Origin: Candidatus Saccharimonadia bacterium
GTDB lineage: Bacteria > Patescibacteriota > Saccharimonadia > UBA4664
Direction: 5' to 3'
Length of the DNA: 64,000 nucleotides
Assembly (NCBI GenBank): GCA_038251135.1
Contig: JBBSBR010000001.1
Span: forward strand, 512 to 64,511
The notes under the pieces are model-generated. The model was given only the letters and a program-made list of their open reading frames with translations. It searched no databases and had not been told where the DNA came from. The translations under genes and the position numbers were made by a program. Of the stretch, positions 3,132 through 64,000 are shown in pieces; positions within the stretch are counted from its first letter, which is position 1, and each line of letters starts with the position of its first letter.

Positions 3132-4127
3132 CTAATTGAGGTACTTCGAAATATTGGCTTGATGCTCGGCATACGTCTTGGCGAAGTAGGTCTTGCCGTC
3201 CTTGCCGGTCAAAAAATAGCTGTAGTCAGTAGCGGCCGGGTGAGCAACGGCATCCAGTGCCGACAGGCCGGGATTTGCGATCGGGCCGGGCGGCAAACCG
3301 ACTACTTTGCGCGTATTATAGGGCGAATCCAGATTGACGTTGAAGGGGACTCCCAGAAGTTGAGCCGCGTAAACGGCCGTGACGTCCGACCCCAAGGGCT
3401 GCTTCTCACGGTAGCGCTTCAGAAACACCTGAGCAACGATCGGTCGGTCGCTCGCAATATTTACCTCCCGCTCGACGATCGAGGCGATCGTAAGCCCCTG
3501 GTGAAGCGTCAGCCCTTCGGCGGCAAACGCCTGCACGTACTCGGGGCCGACCTTGCGGCTAAAGTTATCGAGCATGGCGTTTACCAGCTCGGAGCCGGTA
3601 GTTGAAGAGTTAACGGTATAGGAATCCGGAAACAGGTAACCCTCAAGGCTGACGGTAGCGGGTTTACCGGCCAAAAACGATTGATCGTGCGGCTCGTTCA
3701 GGGCGGCCTCAAACTCAGCCGCGGGTATACCGAGAAGAGCCGCCTCCTTTTCGATCTGCTTGATCGTGTAGCCCTCGGGAACGACCAGCCGGTCGGTAAG
3801 CGTCTTGCCCTGCGACAGTATATTGGCAACATCCGGGGCGCTCAATGTGGGGGTAAGTGAGTAAGTACCGGCCTTGAGGAGTCGTCGCTGACCATGAAAG
3901 TTAATATAAGTCATGAAGGCGTTTCGATCGCGGATCAATCCGGCAGCCTTCAGATTATCGGCGATCTCCGGCGCGGTTTGGCCGGACTTCACCTCAAAGA
4001 CGACCGCTTGGCCAGTTTTTGCAGGAGCAGTCAGATCGAAGCGATAGATACCGTATGTTACGGCAAATACCATAAGTGCTACGGCGGCTGCAATTGGGAT
4101 TGCACGTCGTCGGCTGGGTCGTTTCAT
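3132..4127 (-). CDS. mltG: Endolytic murein transglycosylase MltG (YceG-like).
   Basis: N-terminal TM helix then YceG domain. Conserved C-terminal LPPGPIANPG and YFLTGKDGKTYFAKTYAEH motifs. Confidence 0.85.
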   Translation of the reverse strand: MKRPSRRRAIPIAAAVALMVFAVTYGIYRFDLTAPAKTGQAVVFEVKSGQTAPEIADNLKAAGLIRDRNAFMTYINFHGQRRLLKAGTYSLTPTLSAPDVANILSQGKTLTDRLVVPEGYTIKQIEKEAALLGIPAAEFEAALNEPHDQSFLAGKPATVSLEGYLFPDSYTVNSSTTGSELVNAMLDNFSRKVGPEYVQAFAAEGLTLHQGLTIASIVEREVNIASDRPIVAQVFLKRYREKQPLGSDVTAVYAAQLLGVPFNVNLDSPYNTRKVVGLPPGPIANPGLSALDAVAHPAATDYSYFLTGKDGKTYFAKTYAEHQANISKYLN

Positions 4128-4510
4128 AGGTTTCCCAGATAATCTTGAAGAATGATAGTGGCGGCCTCGGCGTCGATATCGGACTTGTCGTACTTACGTC
4201 CCGACTCGCGTAAACGTTCTTCCGCGACGCTCGAAGTACCGGCCTCATCCTGATAGACGATCTCAGCATCAAGCTTTCCCAGAATCTCCTCGGTAAAGCG
4301 CCGGACTGCCAGCGTTTGGGGGGTTTCGCGTCCATCCAAGCTTCGGGGCAGGCCGACTACAATAGTATCGAACGGCCCTTCCTGCCTTATGGTAGCGACC
4401 AATTCATGGGGCGCGATGGTTTTGTGCGGGTTCGCCAAACGAACTTCGTCGTCGGCGACGGCCAAGCCCATACGGCGTTCACCATAATCGATTCCCAGAT
4501 ATCGCTTCAC
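4124..4510 (-). CDS. ruvX: Putative pre-16S rRNA nuclease / Holliday junction resolvase-like RuvX (YqgF).
   Basis: MKRYLGIDYGERRMGLAVAD N-terminus typical of YqgF RNase H-like fold. 4-nt overlap with mltG. Confidence 0.85.
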   Translation of the reverse strand: MKRYLGIDYGERRMGLAVADDEVRLANPHKTIAPHELVATIRQEGPFDTIVVGLPRSLDGRETPQTLAVRRFTEEILGKLDAEIVYQDEAGTSSVAEERLRESGRKYDKSDIDAEAATIILQDYLGNL

Positions 4511-8044: not shown

Positions 8045-9310
8045 CTAGGCCGAGATGGCGCGGGATAATTTCTTGATCAGAGTTTCGGTCGTGGTTTCGC
8101 TACCGACCATATCGAGGCCTAAGTTAGCCAAACCCATCGGCGTAATGTCGGCGTAGCTGGTGAGCTTACCGGTCTTATCTTTGACGCGGTTCACTTCGTC
8201 GGGGCTGATATGCGTGACGATCGGCTTGCGGGCAAAAGGCAGGGTTTTGTACCACTCAGAACCCTTCAGGGCGTCCATAATCTGCGGCAGCCCCGTACCG
8301 CCGCCGCACAGCATGATCTTGGCCGGTAGGTGATCCACGCGATCAAACTCTGCCAAACTTAGCTCCACACCCGACAGCCAGACCTTGATATCGCTGTTGA
8401 CCGCCTCTTCGACGAATTTGACCCCCTTGGGTCCGAGTTTACCATCGGAATAGGCGATCTTCATCTCCTCGGCCTTCTCGAAGCTAACGTTGGCAACTTG
8501 AGCAATGCGCTTAGTAAAGGCGCGGCCACCAATGGCAAACATCTTGGTTCCCTCGACCCCGCCGTTATTGACGAGGGCGATGTCGGTAGTGCCGCCGCCG
8601 ATATCGATGAAGATGGCGCTAAACTCGCCTGAGTCCTGGCCGCCAACGCTCTTGGCGACGGCAAAAGGCTCGGCGGCGATGCTCACGAGATTTAAGTCGA
8701 GATCCTGGGCGACCGTCTGCAGCGCCCCCAGATGGACCATCGGCGCAAAGGCATTAAACAGCTGTATACTCACGTCGCGCCCCTGAAAGCCGATCGGATT
8801 GGTCACCCGATAGCCGTCTATCTGTACGTCGACAATGGCCGTATTCACGAGCTTAACTTCGATCTCTTTGAATCCGGTCTCCCAGGTTAGCTGCTCGCGG
8901 GCGCGCTCAAAGGCGCGGTATTGCACCCGATCGAGGATTTTCTTGAGCTCAATCATATCGATAGGGTCGCTCGGTGTCCCGCGCTTGTAACGGATCACCG
9001 TCGACGCACCCTTCACGAGCTCGCCGGCGATACCGATGACGACATCTTTAGCCACCACCCCGGCCATCTTCTCGGCCATGCGCAGAGCGGCATCGCAATT
9101 TTCAACGACGCCGCGAATGTCGGTGACTGCCCCGGATTGCATATCCGACAGACGCTGCCGCTGACGGCCTACGCCGATAATTTCGATCTCGTTGCCCTGA
9201 ACTTCGCCGATCAGGGCTTTTACGAATTCGGTGCCAATATCCAGCGCCACCAGATAACGCTGCTGGGGTTCCTTGGACTTACGGGTAAATTTATCGAGCA
9301 ACTTGGCCAT
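8045..9310 (-). CDS. ftsA: Cell division protein FtsA.
   Basis: Actin-like ATPase. LVALDIGTEFVKALIGEV N-terminal phosphate-1 loop and IDIGGGTTDIALV phosphate-2 loop. Confidence 0.85.
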   Translation of the reverse strand: MAKLLDKFTRKSKEPQQRYLVALDIGTEFVKALIGEVQGNEIEIIGVGRQRQRLSDMQSGAVTDIRGVVENCDAALRMAEKMAGVVAKDVVIGIAGELVKGASTVIRYKRGTPSDPIDMIELKKILDRVQYRAFERAREQLTWETGFKEIEVKLVNTAIVDVQIDGYRVTNPIGFQGRDVSIQLFNAFAPMVHLGALQTVAQDLDLNLVSIAAEPFAVAKSVGGQDSGEFSAIFIDIGGGTTDIALVNNGGVEGTKMFAIGGRAFTKRIAQVANVSFEKAEEMKIAYSDGKLGPKGVKFVEEAVNSDIKVWLSGVELSLAEFDRVDHLPAKIMLCGGGTGLPQIMDALKGSEWYKTLPFARKPIVTHISPDEVNRVKDKTGKLTSYADITPMGLANLGLDMVGSETTTETLIKKLSRAISA

Positions 9311-9363
9311 GAGTATATCTTTATATATTGATTGTACTGCTTAAGCTAAGCGCTGCCAAACTA

Positions 9364-9675
9364 CTAAGGCGTTGTCGTCTTGGAAGTCGGCGTCGGGGTA
9401 GACTTCGAGGCGGAAGTAGGTACGGGTGTCGCGGATGGCGAAACATTATCCGTGGCGGCCGGTAGGGCGCTCTCGTTGGCGGCCGGAGTCGAAGGAGACT
9501 GAGCCTCTCGAAGCTGGTTTCGCAAGCTGCTCAGGTTGCCGGACTGGGAGTCAAGCTGCGCCTGCAGATCAGAGTTCTTCGAGTAGAGCATGTAGCCGCC
9601 AATGCCGGCGCCTACCACGAGAACGGCGATTACGAGCCACTGAAACATTACTACTTTGCTATTTGGGTCTTTCAT
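9364..9675 (-). CDS. Small bitopic membrane protein with a TM helix then a coiled-coil. Possibly FtsB/DivIC-like, with a Thr/Pro-rich tail.
   Basis: MFQWLVIAVLVVGAGIGGYMLY helix followed by a QLDSQSGNLSSLRNQLREAQ heptad segment. Sits immediately upstream of ftsA. Confidence 0.4.
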   Translation of the reverse strand: MKDPNSKVVMFQWLVIAVLVVGAGIGGYMLYSKNSDLQAQLDSQSGNLSSLRNQLREAQSPSTPAANESALPAATDNVSPSATPVPTSASKSTPTPTSKTTTP

Positions 9676-36901: not shown

Positions 36902-36976
36902 TGGTAGTCCCACGGGGAATCGAACCCCGGTTACCAGGATGAAAACCTGGCGTCCTAACCGTTAGACGATGGGACC
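36902..36976 (-). tRNA. tRNA-Glu (anticodon UUC) with an encoded CCA.
   Basis: Minus-strand sequence GGTCCCATCGTCTAACGGTTAGGACGCCAGGTTTTCATCCTGGTAACCGGGGTTCGATTCCCCGTGGGACTACCA. Cloverleaf with anticodon loop TTTTCAT and GTTCGATTC T-loop. Confidence 0.8.
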
Positions 36977-54164: not shown

Positions 54165-55856
54165 CTATTTAACGCGGCTGACCCGGGCAAGAGCCAAAGC
54201 GATTCGCGCGAGTCGGGTGGGCACCCCTTCGTATACGACGTAACGCGGCTGCCATTGGGGCTCAAACTTGGTCTTGAATTGGCGCAACCCCCGAAACGAC
54301 AAAAACGGTTGGTTGATTCGGTAAATCAAATGCAGTAGTTTTTCTTCGAACCGAGTCTCCCCCTCGCCCAACCCCGAGAGCGGCGCCAAGCCCAGATTAA
54401 AAGTTGCCACGCCGCGATCATTCAGGTCGATCAACAGCTTCAGAAAAAGAAAATCCATCAGGTTGCTGGGCGAGTCGGGAACGTAGCGCATCAGATCGAT
54501 ACTGGTCTCGCCGGACGCCGACGCCGGTATCTCGTTGGTGAAGGCCCGTGCCCGACCGGCTTCATCCCGCAGCACGAACAACCGACACTGCTGCATATAC
54601 GCAGTATTAAACGAACCCGCCAAAAAGCCCCATTCCCGCCGGCCGGCATCCCGCCTCCAAGCCCGCGAAATTTCCGTGATCTCGCGCAGCAAGGTTGCGC
54701 TATGCGGCGGAGCATACCAATCGGTGTTATAGCCGGCTTTCGTAAACCGGTTGTTGATGTTGCGAAAATGCTTGTCGTTTGACGTTTTCCCAGCAAAGTT
54801 TGGTACGTCAATGACGGCGTCTTCCCCTATCTTGATGACGCTTAAACCTATCGACTCATAAGCCGGCAAATAATTGTCCGTGGTATAGATAAAGTTAGTT
54901 GTCCAGCCGTGAGTTTGGCAAAACTGCTTAAATTCGCGGAGCAGATCAGGAATAACCGCATCCCGACCCACCGGGTCGCCTAGGCAGAGGGCGATACCCG
55001 ACTCCACGGCATAGGCTATAACTGCCTGGTAACTCGTATCAAAATAATAGGATTTATCACGCGGCCACAGCTTAAAAAAGTCTTCGCTCGTTCGGCTGTA
55101 ATCCGCGATCAGATCCTGCGCCAATTGGCGATCATGAGGCAACGTGCGGTAGCGGTAATCCAGCGGGCGAAACAGACTGTACAGGCCGTACCCGAGCGAG
55201 GCGGCGCCCAGAAAAAATAACGAATCCAGAAACCAGCGTGCCTGATGGGTGTACGGCAGCAGATCAGGGTTGCCGATCAATAGATACGCGTTGATGGTTC
55301 GCTGAAAGGCCTCCCCTAGCGATAATGACACCCCGAAATTTCGTTCACCCATAAAGTAAAACCCGGCCACGCCGTAACCCAGCGTCAACAAAACGCTTAA
55401 ACCCAAGACCAACAAACCCTGCTTGATACTGCGCGATTCGCTTCTCGCGTTGAAATACGGCCGGCATAGCAGAAGTACGATTCCGGCCAACAACGGCCCG
55501 ATCGCGGTAATGTCGGTCGTCGGTCTGAGCAGGCTCACGGCGACCAACAACCAGGCTATAACGGTAGCAATCCACCAAGCCACCAACTTGCGCTGCCATA
55601 ACTGAATCGATACGTACATCAAGACGAAGCCGAGGAACAGGTCGAGCGAACGGGCAAAATCTTCAAAACCAACCGGTGTAATGATGGTTTCGATCCGCTC
55701 TGGCATGCGATGCGCCAACGGGATCATGATCGCCAGCAAGCCGTTCAAAAACACAATTCCCGCGACTAGTTTAACGGTCCACGATTGCAATGCGGCGCGC
55801 GTCATGACGAGCCTTCGGGGCGGGTAAGCCTGATGATGGCCCGGCTCGCCGTCCAC
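54165..55856 (-). CDS. MprF-like aminoacyl-phosphatidylglycerol synthase (polytopic N-domain plus DUF2156/LPG_synthase_C).
   Basis: C-terminal domain with IDLMRY...FNLGLAPLSG and YYFDTSYQAVIAYA motifs typical of DUF2156. Confidence 0.6.
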   Translation of the reverse strand: MDGEPGHHQAYPPRRLVMTRAALQSWTVKLVAGIVFLNGLLAIMIPLAHRMPERIETIITPVGFEDFARSLDLFLGFVLMYVSIQLWQRKLVAWWIATVIAWLLVAVSLLRPTTDITAIGPLLAGIVLLLCRPYFNARSESRSIKQGLLVLGLSVLLTLGYGVAGFYFMGERNFGVSLSLGEAFQRTINAYLLIGNPDLLPYTHQARWFLDSLFFLGAASLGYGLYSLFRPLDYRYRTLPHDRQLAQDLIADYSRTSEDFFKLWPRDKSYYFDTSYQAVIAYAVESGIALCLGDPVGRDAVIPDLLREFKQFCQTHGWTTNFIYTTDNYLPAYESIGLSVIKIGEDAVIDVPNFAGKTSNDKHFRNINNRFTKAGYNTDWYAPPHSATLLREITEISRAWRRDAGRREWGFLAGSFNTAYMQQCRLFVLRDEAGRARAFTNEIPASASGETSIDLMRYVPDSPSNLMDFLFLKLLIDLNDRGVATFNLGLAPLSGLGEGETRFEEKLLHLIYRINQPFLSFRGLRQFKTKFEPQWQPRYVVYEGVPTRLARIALALARVSRVK

Positions 55857-56227
55857 AGCGAGACGGCAGCCAGCGGCAGCTCGATTCCGACGGCCAACAG
55901 CGCCGACAGGCTCAATTGCGTACCGGGGTGGGCCGACAGCACGTCAAACCAGGCGTCCACCACCAATAACGTACTCAAGGCCGTAGCCGATAGGATCAAC
56001 CACCGGGAGTGCCGGTAGACCAGGTAGGCCGTGGTCGCCAGCGCCACGAACAAAATCATGTCGAAGCCCACCCATGCCAGATCCCAATGCCGGAAGACGT
56101 GACGCGTCGGCAGCGTATACGAAAGGATGAGAATCCACGGAATCAGAGCCACCGTCAAAACGGTATAAATAATCACCAGCCAGCGTGGCAGCCAGCGCTC
56201 CGGCAGGACTGGATTAGGTATAGCCAT
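55802..56227 (-). CDS. Hypothetical four-helix membrane protein. Its 3' end overlaps the MprF-like start.
   Basis: Four hydrophobic helices. Confidence 0.4.
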   Translation of the reverse strand: MAIPNPVLPERWLPRWLVIIYTVLTVALIPWILILSYTLPTRHVFRHWDLAWVGFDMILFVALATTAYLVYRHSRWLILSATALSTLLVVDAWFDVLSAHPGTQLSLSALLAVGIELPLAAVSLWTASRAIIRLTRPEGSS

Positions 56228-56334: not shown

Positions 56335-56359
56335 ATTAATGTAAACTGTTTACATTAAT
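56335..56359. promoter_or_regulatory. Perfect 12-1-12 palindrome ATTAATGTAAAC-T-GTTTACATTAAT. Candidate autoregulatory operator for the Fur-family regulator.
   Basis: Read directly from the sequence, about 45 bp upstream of the regulator start. Confidence 0.6.
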
Positions 56360-56403
56360 AGCAATATTACCTATACTTAAATACATCAGATAAGTAAGGT
56401 CAG

Positions 56404-56805
56404 ATGATGCAACCAACCACAGTCCACCAGCGGCAGACCAAGTATTGCGATGCCATTGAGCATACGCTCAATACCCTCGGACATGCGACAAATGCCGAGT
56501 TACTGCAGAGTCTGCGCGCAACATTTCCCGATGTCAGCGCTACGACGGTCCACCGCGCTACCGCCCGTCTGGCGGATCGTGGCGCGATCGGGTTTGCCCC
56601 GCCCTCACCGGACGGGTCTATGCGCTACGACGGCAACATTGCTGCTCATGATCACTTTATGTGCAGTGAATGCGGCATGATCAGAGACGCGGATGTCGTC
56701 GGTAAGGTAATTCCAATCCTGGAAAGCTCAATCGGCGGCTGCAATATATCCGGCCGGCTGTCGATCAGCGGCATATGTAATAAATGTAAGGAGAGCAAAT
56801 CATGA
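56404..56805 (+). CDS. Fur-family (Fur/PerR/Zur-like) metalloregulator.
   Basis: Winged-helix N-domain (ATTVHRATARLADRGAI). HDHFMCSECG and C-terminal CNKC metal sites. Confidence 0.75.
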   Translation: MMQPTTVHQRQTKYCDAIEHTLNTLGHATNAELLQSLRATFPDVSATTVHRATARLADRGAIGFAPPSPDGSMRYDGNIAAHDHFMCSECGMIRDADVVGKVIPILESSIGGCNISGRLSISGICNKCKESKS

Positions 56806-57188
56806 AATTAATCGGCGCAATCATAGCGGTCTTTGTCGTCCTAGGGGGTATCTTCATGCTCTCCCAAAACAACAGCAACCCCGCCGAAGCGGCAACCTTC
56901 CAGAAGGTTCAGGCAGACATCGCCAGCGGCGGACAGTTGCTGGATGTGAGGACGCCCGCCGAATACAATGGCGGCCACATCGACGGCGCCATAAACCTGT
57001 CGCTGCAGGACATACAGGCCGGCACGATGCCGACCTTGGCCAAGGACAAGCCGGTTTACGTCTACTGTCACAGCGGCAGCCGGTCCAGCCAGGCAGCCAC
57101 CGCACTCAAGGCGGCCGGATACCAGAACATCATTGATCTGGGGCCGATGACCCACGTTGAGGCCATTGGTGGAAATATCAAATCGTAA
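56802..57188 (+). CDS. Secreted or membrane-anchored single-domain rhodanese (sulfurtransferase).
   Basis: N-terminal TM helix. Active-site loop VYCHSGSRS. Confidence 0.8.
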   Translation: MKLIGAIIAVFVVLGGIFMLSQNNSNPAEAATFQKVQADIASGGQLLDVRTPAEYNGGHIDGAINLSLQDIQAGTMPTLAKDKPVYVYCHSGSRSSQAATALKAAGYQNIIDLGPMTHVEAIGGNIKS

Positions 57189-57205
57189 CTGATTAAGGAG
57201 ACCTA

Positions 57206-57466
57206 ATGAAAATCACTATCTACAGCACCAAGACCTGCCCGTACTGCACCATGCTCAAACGTTGGTTGGATGACAAGCAAGTACCATACACCAACTTCAA
57301 TGTGGAAGACGACCAAACCGCCGCTCGAACCATGATGAACCTCAGCGGCCAGATGGGCGTACCGTTCAGCACTATCGAATTCGACGATGGTCGAATGGCC
57401 AAGATCCTCGGCTTCGACGTGCCGCGCTTTGAAGCAGCCCTGTCTGCGGTTAAGACGAGCGCCTAA
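57206..57466 (+). CDS. Glutaredoxin-like protein (NrdH/YruB-type).
   Basis: CPYC redox motif in KITIYSTKTCPYCTMLK. Confidence 0.75.
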   Translation: MKITIYSTKTCPYCTMLKRWLDDKQVPYTNFNVEDDQTAARTMMNLSGQMGVPFSTIEFDDGRMAKILGFDVPRFEAALSAVKTSA

Positions 57467-57496
57467 TAAACTATTTTCCGACGAAAGGTAAACACC

Positions 57497-57718
57497 ATGC
57501 AGTTTGCAAAATTTATGGCTAGCGTTTGGGGTCGGACGCTGCGGATCGTTGCCGGGGTCGTAATAGTTTATCTCGGGCTGTACGCGGTACGCGGCAGCGG
57601 CGGCAGCATTCTGGCATTTATCGGCCTAATACCGTTAGCTGCCGGCGTCCTTGATGTCTGCCTCCTGGCTCCCCTCTTTGGCGCGCCGTTGTCGGGCAAA
57701 GACGTCCGTAATTCCTAG
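57497..57718 (+). CDS. DUF2892 (YgaP-like) small membrane protein.
   Basis: Two helices and a WGRTLRIVAG pattern typical of DUF2892. Confidence 0.55.
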   Translation: MQFAKFMASVWGRTLRIVAGVVIVYLGLYAVRGSGGSILAFIGLIPLAAGVLDVCLLAPLFGAPLSGKDVRNS

Positions 57719-57874
57719 GGTCAGGTAACCAGTCTCACTGGGGAGTCGACCGGGTTAGATTGTCGCGGTGTCGCATTAGGTGCGCCCCGCTCCTCCGCGC
57801 TGGCTGTCGGCTCAGGCCGTATTTACACCCATCCTCGACAGTAGTGCTAGTATATAAACATAGAGGGAATAATC

Positions 57875-60337
57875 TTGACCAAAGAAAAAATTGTTATCGT
57901 CGGCGGAGTCGCCGGTGGCGCAACGGCAGCCGCCCGGGCCCGACGCCTGAGTGAAACAGCCGAAATTATAATTATCGAAAAAGGGCCGTACATATCGTTT
58001 GCCAACTGCGGTTTACCCTATTATATTGGCGGCATAATCAGCGACAAAGACCGGCTGCTCCTGCAGACTCCGGCTGCTATGCGTAAGCGCTTCGGCATTG
58101 ACGCCCGAACCGGACATGAAGTTACCGCCCTGCATCCCTCCAAGAAAACGGTAACCGTCACCGACCTGGCCAGCGGAAAAACTTACCAGGAAACATACAC
58201 CAAGCTGATCCTGGCCACCGGTGCGATCCCGTTTATACCCCCGATCGCCGGTCTCGAAGACGTCGAACATTACGTGCTGCGGGATATTCCTGATTCGGAC
58301 CGAATTAAAACCTTGGTCGACAGCGGCTTGGCGCACCATGTGCTCATCGTAGGCGCCGGCGCGATCTCGTTAGAGTTGGCAGAGAACCTCATAACAAAAG
58401 GTTCGGCGGTCACTATAGTCGAAGCATCCGGCCACGTGTTACCGCAACTCGACCTGGAAATCGCCCGCATCATGGAAACCGAACTCAGAGCCAAAGGTAT
58501 AACCCTACACTTGGGCGCGTCCCTCCAGTCGGTCGGTTCGGACGGCGGCAGGGTTCTGGCAACTCTGGCGAACGGCGAAACGATCAGCGCCGACACACTG
58601 GTGCTGGTAGCCGGGATCCGACCCAACACGGCTCTGGCGAAAGCCGCACATATCACGCTCGATGAACGAGGTCTCATCGTCACCGATACCCGCCTCCGTA
58701 CCTCGGTAAAGACCATTTTTGCGGTTGGCGACAGCATTGCCATACGCGAGTTAGTCAGCGGCAGCCGCGTCAATATTGCTCTAGCCGGACCGGCCAATAA
58801 GCAAGCCCGCGTGGCGGCCGCCAATGCCTTGGGCGGCGACGAAGCCTATTCGGGCGCGCTCGCGACGGCAATCGTGAGCGCTTTTGGGTTGGCGGCCGCC
58901 TCTACCGGACTCAGCTCATTTCAACTCGAAAAGAACGGTCAGGAATTCAGCCAAACGATTATCCACTCAACTTCCCATGCCGGCTATTATCCGGCGGCGA
59001 TGCCGCTGACCGTGAAGTTGCTCTTCGGCAAAAACGGGGAAATTTTTGGAGCGCAGGCTATCGGCCGGGAGGGCGCCGACAAACGCATCGATGTAATCGC
59101 CACCGCCATGCGGGGCCGCATGGACGTCCATGACTTGGCGCGCCTCGACTTAGCTTACAGTCCGCCCTACTCGAGCGCGAAAGACCCGGTCAACATGGTC
59201 GCCTTTACCGCCGAAAATATTCTCAGCGGCCTCATGAAGCCGTTTTCGCACAGCCAATTGCCATCCTTAACGCCGCAAGACGTCTTACTTGACGTTCGCA
59301 CCCCGGAAGAGTTCGACCTCGGCGCCATCAAGGGTGCCGTGAACATGCCCGTGGACGGTCTGCGCGAAAACCTCCACACTCTGCCCAAATCCAAGAAGCT
59401 GTATGTCTATTGTGCCAGCGGGCAACGGTCATATCTGGCTGGACGCATACTCGCCCAGCGCGGTTTCGACTGCTACAACCTGATTGGCGGATACCACACC
59501 TATAAGGACGTATATCTGCAGGAACCGACTGCCGCCGCTCCGACACAAAGCTCCGAACAGTCGCTGGCAGCCGCACCTATCCAGACTCTGACCGTTCCGA
59601 CGGATTCTGAGATAACCGTTACCCTCGACACCTGTGGCCTGTCCTGTCCCGGTCCCCTGCACAAAGTATTTGAAACCGCGAAAAAACTCAATCCGGGCGA
59701 TACGATCAAGGTTACGGCCACGGATCCGGCTTTTGCCAGCGATATCGTTGCTTGGTGCGACCGCACCGGCAATACCTTGCTGCAGCAGAGTACCGACGAC
59801 GGCATCATTACCGCAATTCTGCGCAAAGGCCCGGCAACGCACGCGATTCATATCGATCACGCCGAGAATAACGCCAAAACCTTCATAATCTTTTCCGATG
59901 ATATCGACAAGGTTATCGCCTCGTTCATACTCGCTAACGGCGGAGTCTCAATGGGCCGAGACGTTACCATGTTTTTCACCTTCTGGGGCTTAAACGTCTT
60001 GCGCAAGCCCGGATCAGTTCCCATACAGAAGGATCCAATTTCTCAAGTATTCGGCTTAATGATGCCCAAGGGCAGCAAGCACCTGCACCTGTCGCAGATG
60101 AATATGGGCGGTATGGGCACCTCGTTGATCCGCTGGCTGATGATCAAAAAGAACATCGGCACGCTTGAGACACTCATCCAGCAGGCTAGGGACGGCGGCG
60201 TTCACATGATCGCCTGCTCCACCAGTATGGACATTATGGGCATCAAAAAAGAGGAGCTCATCGACGGGATCGAAATCGGCGGAGTCGCGTCCTATTATAA
60301 TGCCGCCGAACGGGCTGATACGAATCTGTTTATTTAG
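57875..60337 (+). CDS. Multidomain CoA-disulfide/persulfide reductase with pyridine nucleotide-disulfide oxidoreductase, rhodanese, TusA-like and DsrE-like domains. TTG start.
   Basis: FAD motif IVIVGGVAGG and active Cys SFANCGLPY (CoADR). Rhodanese CASGQRS. TusA CPGP. DsrE-like C-terminus. Confidence 0.8.
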   Translation: MTKEKIVIVGGVAGGATAAARARRLSETAEIIIIEKGPYISFANCGLPYYIGGIISDKDRLLLQTPAAMRKRFGIDARTGHEVTALHPSKKTVTVTDLASGKTYQETYTKLILATGAIPFIPPIAGLEDVEHYVLRDIPDSDRIKTLVDSGLAHHVLIVGAGAISLELAENLITKGSAVTIVEASGHVLPQLDLEIARIMETELRAKGITLHLGASLQSVGSDGGRVLATLANGETISADTLVLVAGIRPNTALAKAAHITLDERGLIVTDTRLRTSVKTIFAVGDSIAIRELVSGSRVNIALAGPANKQARVAAANALGGDEAYSGALATAIVSAFGLAAASTGLSSFQLEKNGQEFSQTIIHSTSHAGYYPAAMPLTVKLLFGKNGEIFGAQAIGREGADKRIDVIATAMRGRMDVHDLARLDLAYSPPYSSAKDPVNMVAFTAENILSGLMKPFSHSQLPSLTPQDVLLDVRTPEEFDLGAIKGAVNMPVDGLRENLHTLPKSKKLYVYCASGQRSYLAGRILAQRGFDCYNLIGGYHTYKDVYLQEPTAAAPTQSSEQSLAAAPIQTLTVPTDSEITVTLDTCGLSCPGPLHKVFETAKKLNPGDTIKVTATDPAFASDIVAWCDRTGNTLLQQSTDDGIITAILRKGPATHAIHIDHAENNAKTFIIFSDDIDKVIASFILANGGVSMGRDVTMFFTFWGLNVLRKPGSVPIQKDPISQVFGLMMPKGSKHLHLSQMNMGGMGTSLIRWLMIKKNIGTLETLIQQARDGGVHMIACSTSMDIMGIKKEELIDGIEIGGVASYYNAAERADTNLFI

Positions 60338-63110: not shown

Positions 63111-63440
63111 TTATTTGCTGAGTTTTTTCGCAATGTCATTGTTCAGATCTTCGCGCCATTTATCAGCGTATGTCTTTGCGCCCTCGATCAGCTCATCACA
63201 AAACGCTGCCACGTCATCGCCGGTAATTTCGAGCGCGTTTCTGCCGTTTGCCGCGCCCTCTTCAAAGAGATCAAGCAAACCCTTGAAGACGTCCATCGAA
63301 TCCTGACCCGAAGCCTTCCACATGTAAGGCTTTATTTCGTCGTAAACTATTTGATAATCTTTCGGCAGAGCTTTGGCCCGCGCTTCCATCGCATTCCACT
63401 CTTTTTTATCACCAATGATTTTCTTTATAAAGTCACTCAT
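63111..63440 (-). CDS. DUF1048 protein (PadR-associated).
   Basis: Helical protein. Overlaps the PadR stop by 8 nt, the typical PadR-DUF1048 operon arrangement. Confidence 0.55.
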   Translation of the reverse strand: MSDFIKKIIGDKKEWNAMEARAKALPKDYQIVYDEIKPYMWKASGQDSMDVFKGLLDLFEEGAANGRNALEITGDDVAAFCDELIEGAKTYADKWREDLNNDIAKKLSK

Positions 63441-63762
63441 TCTCAGCCTCCTTTAATTCGTTAATCTTTGACGACACGAAGTCCCACTTAGCCCAAAAGT
63501 GCTGGAGTTCCTCGCGACCCGCTTCCGTAAGCGTATAAAACTTACGAGGAGGTCCCAGATCGGACGGTTTTTTCTCAATGCTGACGAGATCGTTCTTTTC
63601 GAGCCGCACCAATATCGTGTAAACCGTACCTTCTACCACATCAGTAAAACCGAGTTTGCGCAGTTGCTGGGTAATTTCGTAACCGTAGGTTTTATTGCGC
63701 CCGATGATTTCCAGCACGCAACCCTCGAGCGAGCCTTTTAGCATTTCTGTGATGTTTTCCAT
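63433..63762 (-). CDS. PadR-family transcriptional regulator. Likely start is MENITEML. The ORF track extends it to 63846.
   Basis: LKGSLEGCVLEIIGRNKTYGYEI winged-helix signature. Confidence 0.75.
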   Translation of the reverse strand: MENITEMLKGSLEGCVLEIIGRNKTYGYEITQQLRKLGFTDVVEGTVYTILVRLEKNDLVSIEKKPSDLGPPRKFYTLTEAGREELQHFWAKWDFVSSKINELKEAENE

Positions 63763-64000
63763 GCAATCTCTCCTTTCTGCAATCATTGGGTATATAGGAT
63801 TACTTACTACCACTACATAGTAACACGCACTAGTAAAATAGGTCAACCGGTCTGTGATATATAGCCTGGATTATCAATGTATATGCCGGCAGCGACTGCT
63901 TCGTAAGAATTCGTAGTTAGTAGATCTGACATTGTTGCTTTGCGACCTTCACTAATTCGTGCGCGGATTCACTCCGCCGACTCATGACTTGCATACTTCG

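Follow-up and report, generated by a model that had tools for sequence, protein, structure and literature searches.

A conserved palindromic operator and a PerR-like regulator ahead of thiol and sulfur-transfer genes in Saccharibacteria

A Fur-family regulator gene of a Saccharibacterium (CPR) is preceded by a perfect palindrome that is retained in related genomes, and it lies among genes for sulfur transfer and thiol redox chemistry. We consider it fairly probable that the locus specifies an autoregulated, PerR-like, metal-dependent redox repressor controlling these thiol and sulfur-transfer genes and, on the same footing, that the regulator is a PerR-type protein whose clade has to date been observed only in Saccharibacteria. 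The combination of regulator, operator and sulfur-transfer/thiol-redox genes looks like a redox-stress switch of this group.

Organization of the gene cluster

The palindrome, the Fur gene and the rhodanese, glutaredoxin-like, DUF2892 and 820-aa fusion genes that an earlier note had described were all found where it had placed them in the window, the 64-kb stretch of DNA that was analysed. The features are as follows.

55802-56227, minus strand: divergent membrane protein of 141 aa with four helices, matching no Pfam or NCBIfam family
56335-56359, no strand assigned: operator, perfect 12-1-12 palindrome ATTAATGTAAAC-T-GTTTACATTAAT, read from the sequence
56337-56357: conserved operator core, 21-bp 10-1-10 site TAATGTAAAC-T-GTTTACATTA, at the peak of the information-content profile
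56349-56377, plus strand: predicted sigma-70 promoter of the regulator operon (10 of 12 in a promoter scan)
56349-56354, plus strand: -35 element TTTACA, formed by the operator right arm
56372-56377, plus strand: -10 element TATACT, after a 17-bp spacer
56404-56805, plus strand: Fur-family, PerR-like predicted repressor, 133 aa (Pfam FUR, E=6.8e-10)
56802-57188, plus strand: single-domain PspE-like rhodanese with active-site loop CHSGSR (Pfam Rhodanese, 1e-18)
57206-57466, plus strand: glutaredoxin-like protein with a CPYC motif (Pfam Glutaredoxin, 1.4e-14)
57497-57718, plus strand: DUF2892/YgaP-like two-helix membrane protein (Pfam PF11127, 1.5e-09)
57719-57874, plus strand: GC-rich 156-bp spacer between the DUF2892 and fusion genes
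57875-60337, plus strand: CoA-disulfide-reductase/rhodanese/TusA/DsrE2 fusion, 820 aa (Pfam and NCBIfam domains)

The overlap of the regulator stop with the rhodanese start, which the earlier note had also reported, consists of an ATGA at 56802-56805 that holds the regulator TGA and the rhodanese ATG. Translation from a second regulator ATG at 56407 would give a 132-aa product. The rhodanese has an N-terminal hydrophobic segment with an AEA-A motif and would be either anchored or exported, the segment being a membrane anchor or a signal sequence; its match to NCBIfam PspE (48 bits) is under the cut-off. For the glutaredoxin-like protein, NCBIfam GlrX_YruB scored 65 bits, and the nearest families are YruB and mycoredoxin.

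The earlier note had proposed a five-gene operon. The close spacing of the first four genes (-4, 17 and 30 bp) agrees with this, but membership of the fusion gene, which has a TTG start and the Shine-Dalgarno sequence GAGGGA, is less certain because of the 156-bp gap after DUF2892, and co-transcription of this fifth gene is presumed. Scans of the gap found no canonical promoter or terminator, no operator match and no Rfam match, and its predicted RNA structure was not significant (fold z-score -0.82).

The operator and the predicted promoters that overlap it

The palindrome ends 44 bp before the regulator start and occurs once in the 64-kb window, where no chance match with three or fewer mismatches is expected (100 shuffles). 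Its 21-bp core, with the consensus TAATGTAAAY-N-RTTTACATTA, was found 5' of the orthologous regulator gene in 75/75 related genome loci, and information content in the aligned loci reached its maximum across these 21 bp. The operator was kept in 76/76 loci, at which the regulators are 39-73% identical. Judged from this comparison, the palindrome is a genuine operator with deep conservation.

The hexamer TTTACA stands inside the right arm in 75/75 aligned loci, 68 of which have a TAnnnT hexamer exactly 17 bp past it. On the opposite strand TTGCTA (43/75), a 17-bp spacer and TAnnAT are common, and the divergent rhodanese start is only ~30-70 bp from the operator centre. The operator and its overlap with the promoter, like the gene linkage and ligand conservation described below, are evident at the level of sequence comparison.

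Extra operator copies lie ahead of DsbA-like and CPAC-membrane genes in three loci (L024, L060 and L165) and ahead of a thioredoxin-reductase gene preceding the regulator in six (L103, L107, L118, L123, L143 and L145), the latter being a version of the regulator operon itself with a further operator copy. The survey spanned ~12 kb per genome. Within it, genes for iron or zinc uptake were found neither behind the operator copies nor at related loci, and none of the copies seen was followed by an ABC, Feo or ZnuA-type uptake gene, a siderophore gene or a zinc-independent ribosomal protein paralog. In these ~12 kb per genome the palindrome therefore does not recur mainly at genes that take up iron or zinc, which the earlier note had named as the sign of a classical Fur or Zur box, and such a box was rejected as far as the survey reached. 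Catalase, Ahp, Dps and rubrerythrin genes were not seen behind the operator in the same ~12 kb per genome.

The regulator

The top PDB sequence match of the regulator was B. subtilis PerR (2fe3, 3e-11), and its AF2 model (pLDDT 90) has the Fur fold. Its H27, D76, H82, H84 and D95 align with H37, D85, H91, H93 and D104 of B. subtilis PerR. These five metal ligands and both CxxC motifs of the Cys4 zinc site are kept in ~99-100% of 201 relatives, and also in the best 150 clusters at 50% identity. The last ligand position is Asp in three PerRs and Glu in B. cereus Fur in printed alignments. Two PerR models are the top NCBIfam matches, at a score (42.7) far under the curated cut-off of 200. The PerR-leaning assignment of the earlier note was thus borne out by the ligands, the PDB match and the best NCBIfam models.

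With B. subtilis PerR (PDB 2fe3, 3f8n) the regulator shares the fold, two CxxC motifs that form a Zn(Cys)4 site, the five regulatory ligands, among them the Asp typical of PerR, a 7-1-7 inverted-repeat operator core overlapping the promoter, and predicted control of its own gene. However, the two are only ~27% identical, and the recognition helix has His50-Arg51 where B. subtilis PerR has Tyr-Asn and aligned PerRs Tyr-Asn or Tyr-Lys. The B. subtilis PerR box is TTATAATnATTATAA, and the operator here differs from it, with TGTAAAY-N-RTTTACA extended to 10-1-10 in place of TTATAAT-N-ATTATAA. The targets also differ: B. subtilis PerR controls catalase, AhpCF, MrgA, heme genes and fur, whereas the regulon seen here comprises genes for rhodaneses, glutaredoxin-like, DUF2892 and DsbA-like proteins and thioredoxin reductase.

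Conserved neighbourhood in Saccharibacteria

A divergent small rhodanese gene was present in 57/74 loci. Among the 64 loci with enough downstream sequence, a glutaredoxin-like gene lay 3' of the regulator in 51, an ortholog of the anchored rhodanese directly 3' in 31, and DUF2892 downstream in 19. Other loci have at the DUF2892 position a ferritin-like DUF2202 protein, which was counted in 19 loci. Thioredoxin reductase, the DsbA-like operon, TauE and NRAMP occur in some loci. NRAMP is co-directional at the cluster end in L040, L044, L061, L062 and L064, whereas in L043 it lies on the other strand; seven homologs were counted in all. VIT1 exporters are near the cluster in six loci. The families annotated repeatedly at the related loci did not include sulfide:quinone reductase (sqr) or persulfide dioxygenase. 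As predicted from these loci, the conserved regulon is one of thiol-redox and sulfur-transfer functions in general. The PerR-like control of reactive sulfur suggested by the earlier note is retained as to the regulator type and the sulfur-transfer genes, but the regulon is broader than reactive sulfur.

The fusion has the Pfam domains Pyr_redox_2, Pyr_redox_dim, Rhodanese, TusA and DsrE_2, with an N-terminal CoADR module carrying the catalytic cysteine motif SFANCGLPYY and a TusA module with CPGP. It has at least 8000 homologs, the best 120 of which share its architecture; identity is at most 53% among the matches listed, where the named homologs come from Clostridia, Bacilli, Spirochaetes and CPR2. 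It was found in 0/64 related loci, neither a Fur gene nor an operator is close to its nearest relatives, and the single copy seen adjoining a Fur-like regulator is that of this genome. On this distribution, the fusion is a genome-specific or lineage-specific add-on and no conserved part of the Saccharibacteria cluster. It is also the cluster's sole explicit persulfide-detoxification enzyme. With its absence from the 64 loci and the 156-bp gap before it, the label of a persulfide detoxification operon rests on a lineage-specific add-on and was dropped as a general description. The earlier note's Gram-positive setting was likewise abandoned, the source organism being no classical Gram-positive.

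The divergent membrane protein of this genome (55802-56227) replaces the small rhodanese of most relatives. In L019 and L027 the regulator cluster has a homolog of it at its 3' end, and the protein may be a regulon member.

Discussion

In the mechanism that we infer, the regulator dimer would have structural zinc in a Zn(Cys)4 site and Fe or Mn in a regulatory site formed by H27, D76, H82, H84 and D95, and would bind the 21-bp inverted repeat. As the operator right arm is the -35 element of the regulator's own promoter, binding would cause autorepression. In most relatives the site would also cover the face-to-face promoter of the divergent small rhodanese, so that one bound dimer would block both directions of transcription. 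Loss of DNA binding would derepress the cluster. The likeliest trigger would be peroxide, through metal-catalysed oxidation of a ligand histidine as in PerR; alternatively, the metal could be lost or the zinc site attacked. Cytoplasmic and membrane-anchored rhodaneses, the glutaredoxin-like protein and DUF2892 or DUF2202 would be derepressed always or often, thioredoxin reductase, the DsbA-like/CPAC-membrane pair, TauE and NRAMP in some genomes, and the CoA-persulfide/disulfide-reductase fusion here, probably via read-through. Several findings speak against this mechanism. The ~12 kb surveyed per genome revealed no catalase, Ahp, Dps or rubrerythrin genes behind the operator, so no classical peroxide regulon was apparent there; the operator is unlike the B. 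subtilis PerR box, the helix has His-Arg, and curated PerR scores are far under the cut-off.

The rhodanese, DUF2892, TauE and CoADR-Rhd-TusA-DsrE content resembles dedicated persulfide-sensor regulons, and the regulator might be a reactive-sulfur (persulfide/polysulfide) sensor on a Fur scaffold, a possibility we regard as unlikely, though deserving of weight. Sulfane sulfur would then persulfidate a Zn(Cys)4 cysteine, or Cys113 or Cys15, and zinc release or dimer distortion would derepress the sulfur-transfer genes so that sulfane sulfur is cleared or trafficked. Sulfurtransferases and their usual companions do dominate the regulon (two rhodaneses, TauE in some loci, and DUF2892, which we take to be the membrane half of YgaP), the fusion is present in this genome, and two additional cysteines are strongly conserved in the close family (C15 in 194/201, C113 in 195/198). 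There is also a precedent in Synechococcus PCC7002 PerR (PMC9952342). However, C15 is Cys in just 5 of the 20 closest 50%-identity clusters of the wider clade, where Thr is commonest, and loci whose regulators lack it (L048, L059, L062, L069 and L070) retain the operator and rhodanese or glutaredoxin genes. Losses of C15 and C113 are uncorrelated, which speaks against an obligate polysulfide bridge between Cys15 and Cys113, as in CstR or SqrR, and the PerR metal-ligand set is conserved more strongly than either cysteine. The absence of sqr and persulfide dioxygenase from the recurrent annotated families and the restriction of the fusion to this genome also count against a sulfur sensor, while the thioredoxin-reductase, DsbA-like and NRAMP members better fit general oxidative stress.

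The NRAMP, VIT1 and ferritin-like DUF2202 neighbours could instead indicate metal homeostasis. That the regulator is a Fur-, Mur- or Zur-like sensor, whose Mn-, Fe- or Zn-bound form represses the cluster until metal is limiting and whose thiol proteins serve metal handling or Fe-S cluster repair, seems to us improbable. The Fur fold and intact regulatory metal site are compatible with it, as are NRAMP, co-directional in five loci, VIT1 in six and DUF2202 in 19, and Arg51 of the recognition helix agrees with Fur and not PerR. Yet the operator copies seen precede no ABC, Feo or ZnuA-type uptake, siderophore or zinc-independent ribosomal paralog gene, the regulatory site has Asp where Fur has Glu in the printed alignments, and the constant partners are rhodanese and glutaredoxin genes and not metal transporters. 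The NRAMP link, found in a minority of loci, is equally expected of a peroxide regulon because E. coli imports Mn under H2O2 stress. We give hardly any credence to the palindrome being a mere promoter element or chance AT-rich symmetry, with the regulator acting elsewhere. The -35 hexamer would by itself be enough to conserve 6 bp of the right arm, and the 19-mer core occurs in ~100 unrelated low-GC metagenome contigs; but these mostly have no TAATG...CATTA ends, whereas the left arm and outer TAAT/ATTA here are conserved as strongly as the -35 element and both arms are kept in all 76 sites. Moreover, the 21-mer recurs at the DsbA-like operon in a different promoter context, and its 7-1-7 core has the layout that typifies Fur-family sites.

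A PerR-type Fur protein has been tied to reactive sulfur before, so a Fur-family response to sulfane sulfur is less unprecedented than the earlier note implied. Polysulfide inactivates Synechococcus sp. PCC7002 PerR by persulfidating Cys121, a residue of its Cys4:Zn site (PMC9952342; reviewed in PMC13467558). That protein and the present one both have a Cys4:Zn site and two cysteines beyond it, of which one is N-terminal and the other lies between the CxxC motifs; a further parallel is release of the repressor by chemical modification, which is proposed here. The extra cysteines are probably not homologous because their spacings differ. Its target is the peroxiredoxin gene prxI, and sulfur sensing was called a secondary role (PMC9952342), whereas the predicted targets here are sulfurtransferases and thiol oxidoreductases.

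The cluster overlaps in content with the cst, sqr and ygaVP operons of CstR (CsoR family) and SqrR/BigR/YgaV (ArsR family): rhodaneses, TauE-type proteins, CoADR-rhodanese persulfide reductases and the YgaP rhodanese plus DUF2892 domain. Those regulators, too, are small repressors that control their own genes from a palindromic operator ahead of the operon. Their folds are unrelated to Fur; in the regulator here no pair of conserved cysteines that could form a polysulfide bridge was found (C15 is variable), its metal site is intact, and sqr and persulfide dioxygenase are not among the recurrent neighbours. A CsoR- or ArsR-type regulator is not needed to account for the locus. The fusion, in its CoADR, rhodanese, TusA and DsrE2-type modules, resembles CoADR-RHD/CoA persulfide reductase and multidomain sulfurtransferases, of which S. 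aureus CstA is an example.

Layout of the regulator locus

The regulator gene and four further open reading frames (ORFs) run in the same direction behind a palindromic operator. The features are as follows:

56335–56359, operator, palindrome ATTAATGTAAAC-T-GTTTACATTAAT, read from the sequence
56404–56805 (+), regulator, Fur-family protein of 133 aa (Pfam FUR, E=6.8e-10)
56802–57188 (+), PspE-like rhodanese with an N-terminal hydrophobic segment (Pfam)
57206–57466 (+), CPYC glutaredoxin-like (Grx-like) protein (Pfam)
57497–57718 (+), YgaP-like-TM/DUF2892 protein (Pfam)
57875–60337 (+), fusion protein of 820 aa with Pyr_redox_2, Pyr_redox_dim, Rhodanese, TusA and DsrE_2 domains (Pfam)

Each element was re-read in the sequence and checked against Pfam, and the palindrome, regulator, overlapping start and downstream genes described in the earlier note were all confirmed. 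The rhodanese ATG (56802) overlaps the TGA of the regulator gene. The fusion gene begins with TTG, is preceded by a GAGGGA ribosome-binding site and has a 156-bp gap on its 5′ side. The operator was the sole match in the 64-kb window with up to 3 mismatches permitted, and 100 dinucleotide-preserving shuffles gave 0 matches.

Operator and promoters across related loci

More than 600 homologs of the regulator were found. The best 120, the window's own protein aside, were 60–73% identical, and the only organism name among them was Candidatus Saccharimonadales. A scan with one genome per species yielded 75 loci, the titles of which were nearly all Saccharibacteria, Saccharimonadales or Patescibacteria. 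By these homolog names the source organism is a Saccharibacterium of the Candidate Phyla Radiation and not a classical Gram-positive, and the Gram-positive framing adopted earlier was abandoned.

The sequence TAATGTAAAY-N-RTTTACATTA was present upstream of the regulator in all 75 loci, with no more than 2 mismatches to the 21-mer TAATGTAAACTGTTTACATTA; the regulators of these loci are merely 39–73% identical to that of the window. The site lies directly 5′ of the regulator in 74 of the 75 loci and, in the one remaining (L060), 5′ of two genes ahead of it. The operator centre is typically 35–40 bp from the regulator start codon. Across the 75 loci the central base is freely variable and the flanking intergenic DNA is unconserved. 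A chance palindrome, or one that is only part of a promoter, is ruled out by the equal conservation of both arms and by reuse of the site at a second operon.

The right arm gives TTTACA in every one of the 75 aligned sites, and a TAnnnT hexamer (mostly TATACT or TATAAT) stands exactly 17 bp past it in 68. A promoter scan of the window returned the same pair, with a −35 element at 56349–56354 and a −10 element at 56372–56377 (score 10/12). The predicted promoter of the regulator therefore shares its −35 element with the operator. On the opposite strand we observed TTGCTA (43/75), a TAnnAT hexamer at the left edge of the operator and, between the two and within the operator, a 17-bp spacer; judged from sequence, these make up a second promoter that faces the first. 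Because the start of the divergent gene is only about 30–70 bp from the operator centre, its transcription must begin at or within the site. Given the overlap of both promoters, one dimer-sized site would govern transcription both ways. In the window the right flank is displaced by two bases and the divergent gene differs from that of the relatives, which makes control of the divergent gene uncertain there.

The regulator resembles PerR in its metal site

By sequence, the regulator is a member of the Fur superfamily (PF01475), with an N-terminal winged-helix DNA-binding domain and a C-terminal dimerisation domain, that resembles PerR in its metal site. An AF2 model (pLDDT 90) showed a closed, holo-like form of the Fur fold, and Foldseek with this model retrieved Zur, Fur and PerR structures (probability 1.00). 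Two CxxC motifs form a predicted Zn(Cys)4 site, C87/C90 being present in 200 of 201 relatives and C125/C128 in 198 of 201 (all 198 that are full-length). The closest solved relative of a 24-member family profile was Bacillus subtilis PerR (BsPerR; 3e-11), followed by C. jejuni PerR, B. cereus Fur and S. pyogenes PerR. In the profile alignment to BsPerR (PDB 2fe3), H27, D76, H82, H84 and D95 align to H37, D85, H91, H93 and D104, the regulatory Fe/Mn ligands of BsPerR. The metal ligands and both CxxC motifs are conserved in 198–201 of the 201 relatives and are retained across the best 150 50%-identity clusters from an exhaustive profile search. The D95 column holds Asp in the three PerRs (B. subtilis, C. 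jejuni and S. pyogenes) and Glu in B. cereus Fur. The choice between Asp and Glu at the BsPerR D104 position reportedly determines peroxide sensitivity.

The recognition helix, S-A-T-T-V-H50-R51-A, is unlike that of all four solved relatives, with His replacing Tyr. Arg51 is as in Fur, whereas PerRs have Asn or Lys there (Y-N or Y-K for the regulator's H50-R51); the Asn of the BsPerR helix is N61. His50 is typical of the ~60 closest clusters, and Tyr reappears in more distant ones. The operator core, TGTAAAY-N-RTTTACA, differs from both the Fur box, said to be TGATAAT-N-ATTATCA, and the PerR box, reportedly TTATAAT-N-ATTATAA. The altered helix fits an operator that keeps the 7-1-7 architecture of the family but has a different sequence. 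Two PerR models ranked first in NCBIfam, far under their cut-offs (NF047406, 42.7 vs 200 bits; NF052545, 42.2 vs 180 bits). The regulator shares with the PerR subfamily the five-residue metal site, including the Asp at the D104 position, but departs from it in box sequence, recognition-helix Asn and curated score. Since these three features failed, we regard it as PerR-like and not as PerR; the Fur-family, PerR-like sensor of the earlier note is supported by fold and metal site.

Two additional cysteines were considered as a sensing pair. C15 (helix 1) is present in 194 of 201 and C113 (after helix 5) in 195 of 198 close relatives. In the nearest 20 50%-identity clusters, C113 is kept in 18, and C15 is Cys in 5, with Thr commonest. 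Regulators without C15 (L048, L059, L062, L069 and L070) retain the operator and rhodanese or Grx genes, and losses of C15 and C113 are uncorrelated. The variability of C15 and the uncorrelated losses make an obligate Cys15-Cys113 polysulfide switch of the CstR/SqrR type unlikely, and the candidate pair is weakened accordingly. The fold sets the regulator apart from CstR and from SqrR/BigR, being Fur and neither CsoR nor ArsR.

The conserved gene set and further operator copies

Frequencies of neighbouring genes were obtained by tblastn with the window's proteins and by clustering of all ORFs in the loci, with Pfam used for additional families. The genes are closely packed: in most loci they overlap or lie <60 bp apart.

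Table. Gene families at the regulator loci (family; position; frequency)
Small cytoplasmic rhodanese (~90 aa); divergent, within 250 bp; 57/74 loci
Grx-like gene; downstream; 51/64 loci
Membrane-anchored rhodanese; between regulator and Grx; 31/64 loci
DUF2892; downstream; 19/64 loci
DUF2202, ferritin-like with N-terminal anchor; DUF2892 slot; 19 loci
Half-size TauE; within cluster; a few loci
NRAMP; end of the cluster, same direction as the cluster in five; mapped in 6 loci (7 homologs counted)
VKOR; upstream; 7 loci
VIT1; nearby; 6 loci

Further copies of the operator were sought. At L024, L060 and L165 an additional copy lies 5′ of a DsbA-like Thioredoxin_4 gene that is followed by a gene for a membrane protein with a GLGCPACGTS motif; in L060 both genes stand ahead of the regulator in a shared operon. 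At six other loci (L103, L107, L118, L123, L143 and L145) the first gene behind the operator encodes a thioredoxin-disulfide reductase (TIGR01292, 321 bits), and the regulator gene comes after it. A metagenome-wide operator scan did little to define the regulon, since about 100 of the 120 stretches listed came from unrelated contigs, low in GC or eukaryote-like, in which the site is flanked by AAATG...CATTT; the scan added the variant led by thioredoxin reductase and one more DsbA-like site. On Saccharibacteria-type contigs, each operator copy was at a regulator locus or at the operon of the DsbA-like and GLGCPACGTS genes (~12 kb per genome and the metagenome matches listed).

The earlier note had held that copies mainly at iron- or zinc-uptake genes would make the palindrome a classical Fur or Zur box. 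The copies proved to be elsewhere: over the same ~12 kb per genome and the metagenome matches listed, we saw no iron or zinc uptake system behind any of them, and the classical Fur or Zur box was rejected. Catalase, Ahp, Dps and rubrerythrin were likewise not seen in ~12 kb per genome. The genes behind or beside the operator include those for thioredoxin reductase and for Grx-like, DsbA-like and NRAMP proteins.

The GLGCPACGTS protein is a polytopic membrane protein of ~201 aa to which Pfam and NCBIfam assign no family. At all three loci (L024, 8550–9829; L060, 4722–6001; L165, 52–1141) it follows the DsbA-like Thioredoxin_4 protein and shares its operator. In Saccharibacteria it could act with DsbA as a redox partner not yet described; some of these genomes have VKOR nearby instead.

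The CoADR fusion is specific to the window genome

The translated fusion carries the motifs SFANCGLPYY, YCASGQRS, CGLSCPGP and ACSTS. By Pfam domain order, a CoADR module with its catalytic Cys is followed by rhodanese, TusA and DsrE, each with a cysteine of its own. It scored 434 bits against the NCBIfam CoADR model (cut-off 579) and is thus not an equivalog. The architecture is common, with at least 8000 homologs; among the matches listed these are at most 53% identical, and the named ones come from Clostridia, Bacilli, Spirochaetes and CPR2. A full-length match was found at none of the 64 regulator loci with sufficient downstream sequence. The nearest relatives of the fusion gene (L076–L078) lack both a Fur gene and the operator, and the two closest lie in unrelated contexts. 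The idea that the fusion belongs to a conserved operon core was therefore rejected. It is an add-on of this genome, from which the persulfide detoxification flavour of the window operon largely derives.

A scan of the 156-bp gap gave no operator, canonical promoter or terminator. There was no Rfam match, and predicted RNA structure was not unusual (z = −0.82), so an RNA element or terminator in the gap was rejected. With neither a canonical promoter nor a terminator in the gap, read-through from the regulator's promoter into this fifth gene is plausible, and we infer co-transcription on that basis.

Proposed regulation and alternative explanations

Comparison of related genomes yields the operator, its promoter overlap, the gene linkage and the conservation of the ligands; repression and the nature of the inducer we infer. 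A metal-loaded dimer would bind the 21-bp site and occlude the −35 element of its own promoter and, in most genomes, the entire divergent rhodanese promoter as well. An oxidant, most probably peroxide acting at the Fe-bound His/Asp site, would inactivate the regulator and allow expression of the cluster. Together the products would protect thiols and traffic sulfur on either side of the membrane. The cytoplasmic arm would comprise thioredoxin reductase, the Grx-like protein and a small rhodanese, and the extracytoplasmic arm the PspE-like rhodanese, the DsbA-like protein and DUF2202. Some genomes would add manganese import through NRAMP, and that of the window a CoA-persulfide/disulfide reductase fusion.

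This peroxide-responsive scheme was weighed against two others. The clade might be a primary sensor of reactive sulfur that controls a sulfurtransferase network, with the Zn(Cys)4 site or Cys113 as sulfane-sulfur receptor. Its gene content is like that of the CstR and SqrR/YgaV regulons, and there is a precedent in Synechococcus PerR, in which polysulfide persulfidates Cys121 of the Cys4 site and zinc and DNA binding are lost (PMC9952342; review PMC13467558). We nevertheless consider this improbable for the Saccharibacteria clade, in which C15 is variable and the metal ligands are more strongly conserved than the extra cysteines; neither sqr nor persulfide dioxygenase was identified among the recurrent gene families of the loci, and the CoADR fusion is unique to the window genome. 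If true, dedicated persulfide-responsive repressors would gain a fourth structural class beyond CsoR/CstR, ArsR/SqrR and FisR, and the sulfurtransferases would come under such control in an organism reliant on its host for most metabolites. A role in metal homeostasis is suggested by the NRAMP, VIT1 and DUF2202 neighbours and by Arg51, but no operator copy was seen to control an uptake system and the Asp signature points away from Fur.

A full-text literature search gave no paper on a Fur-family regulator heading rhodanese/Grx operons, or on such a regulator in Saccharibacteria. The regulator is best seen as part of a Fur/PerR clade that spans the lineage and has an operator of its own and an unusual regulon for thiol and sulfur-transfer functions; the fold, autoregulation and general logic are already familiar. 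The Saccharibacteria, ultra-small bacteria that depend on a host, possess very few regulators, and to our knowledge almost nothing is known of their stress sensing. The locus offers a complete, testable unit conserved across the lineage (sensor, 21-bp operator, overlapping divergent promoters and a small, defined regulon) that bears on redox sensing in minimal epibionts. It suggests that a sensor of the PerR type can be connected to sulfurtransferases, Grx-like proteins, thioredoxin reductase and envelope disulfide-bond proteins in place of catalase-type defences, which may represent thiol protection in organisms without classical peroxide scavengers. It is also a clean system for asking whether Fur-family proteins act as primary sulfur-stress sensors, and the His50 recognition helix with its new box provides a data point for the DNA-recognition code of the family.

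Neighbouring genes, paralogs and other sites

Adjoining the operator in the window is a divergent gene (55802–56227, −) for a four-helix membrane protein of no known family. Its homologs lie at the 3′ end of the same cluster in two other genomes (L019, 4658–5155; L027, ~4149–4472), so the protein appears to travel with the regulon. Just past it is an MprF-like phosphatidylglycerol lysyltransferase gene (54165–55856, −; LPG_synthase_C, 3.7e-71), a lipid modification function in a genome expected to be minimal. At the window end, a 137-aa ORF (63433–63846, −) looks, from its sequence, like a small regulator of the winged-helix type, perhaps PadR-like, and overlaps the start of its 109-aa partner (63111–63440, −); the two may be another compact regulatory pair. 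The sole RNA gene detected in the 64 kb was tRNA-Glu (TTC; 36902–36976, −).

Fur-like paralogs occur in pairs in some genomes, and each member of a pair has rhodanese, Grx or DUF2892 genes next to it. Those of L145 are at 8951–9391 (−) and 1413–1781 (−). The L052 paralog (3624–4022, −) is 34% identical and lacks C15 and C113, and its operator (4038–4058) is degenerate (AAATGTAAATGATTAACATAT). The pairs suggest an old duplication of the whole regulator-plus-target unit.

The 19-mer AATGTAAAYNRTTTACATT was found 5′ of a TonB-dependent receptor gene on five related low-GC contigs (L100, L105, L112, L152 and L178). On three contigs of ~50% GC (L102, L111 and L116) it lies between a 137-aa ORF and a 461–511-aa ORF with an N-terminal signal-like segment. 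Both sets of copies may serve as operators for regulators of other phyla that are unrelated to this one.
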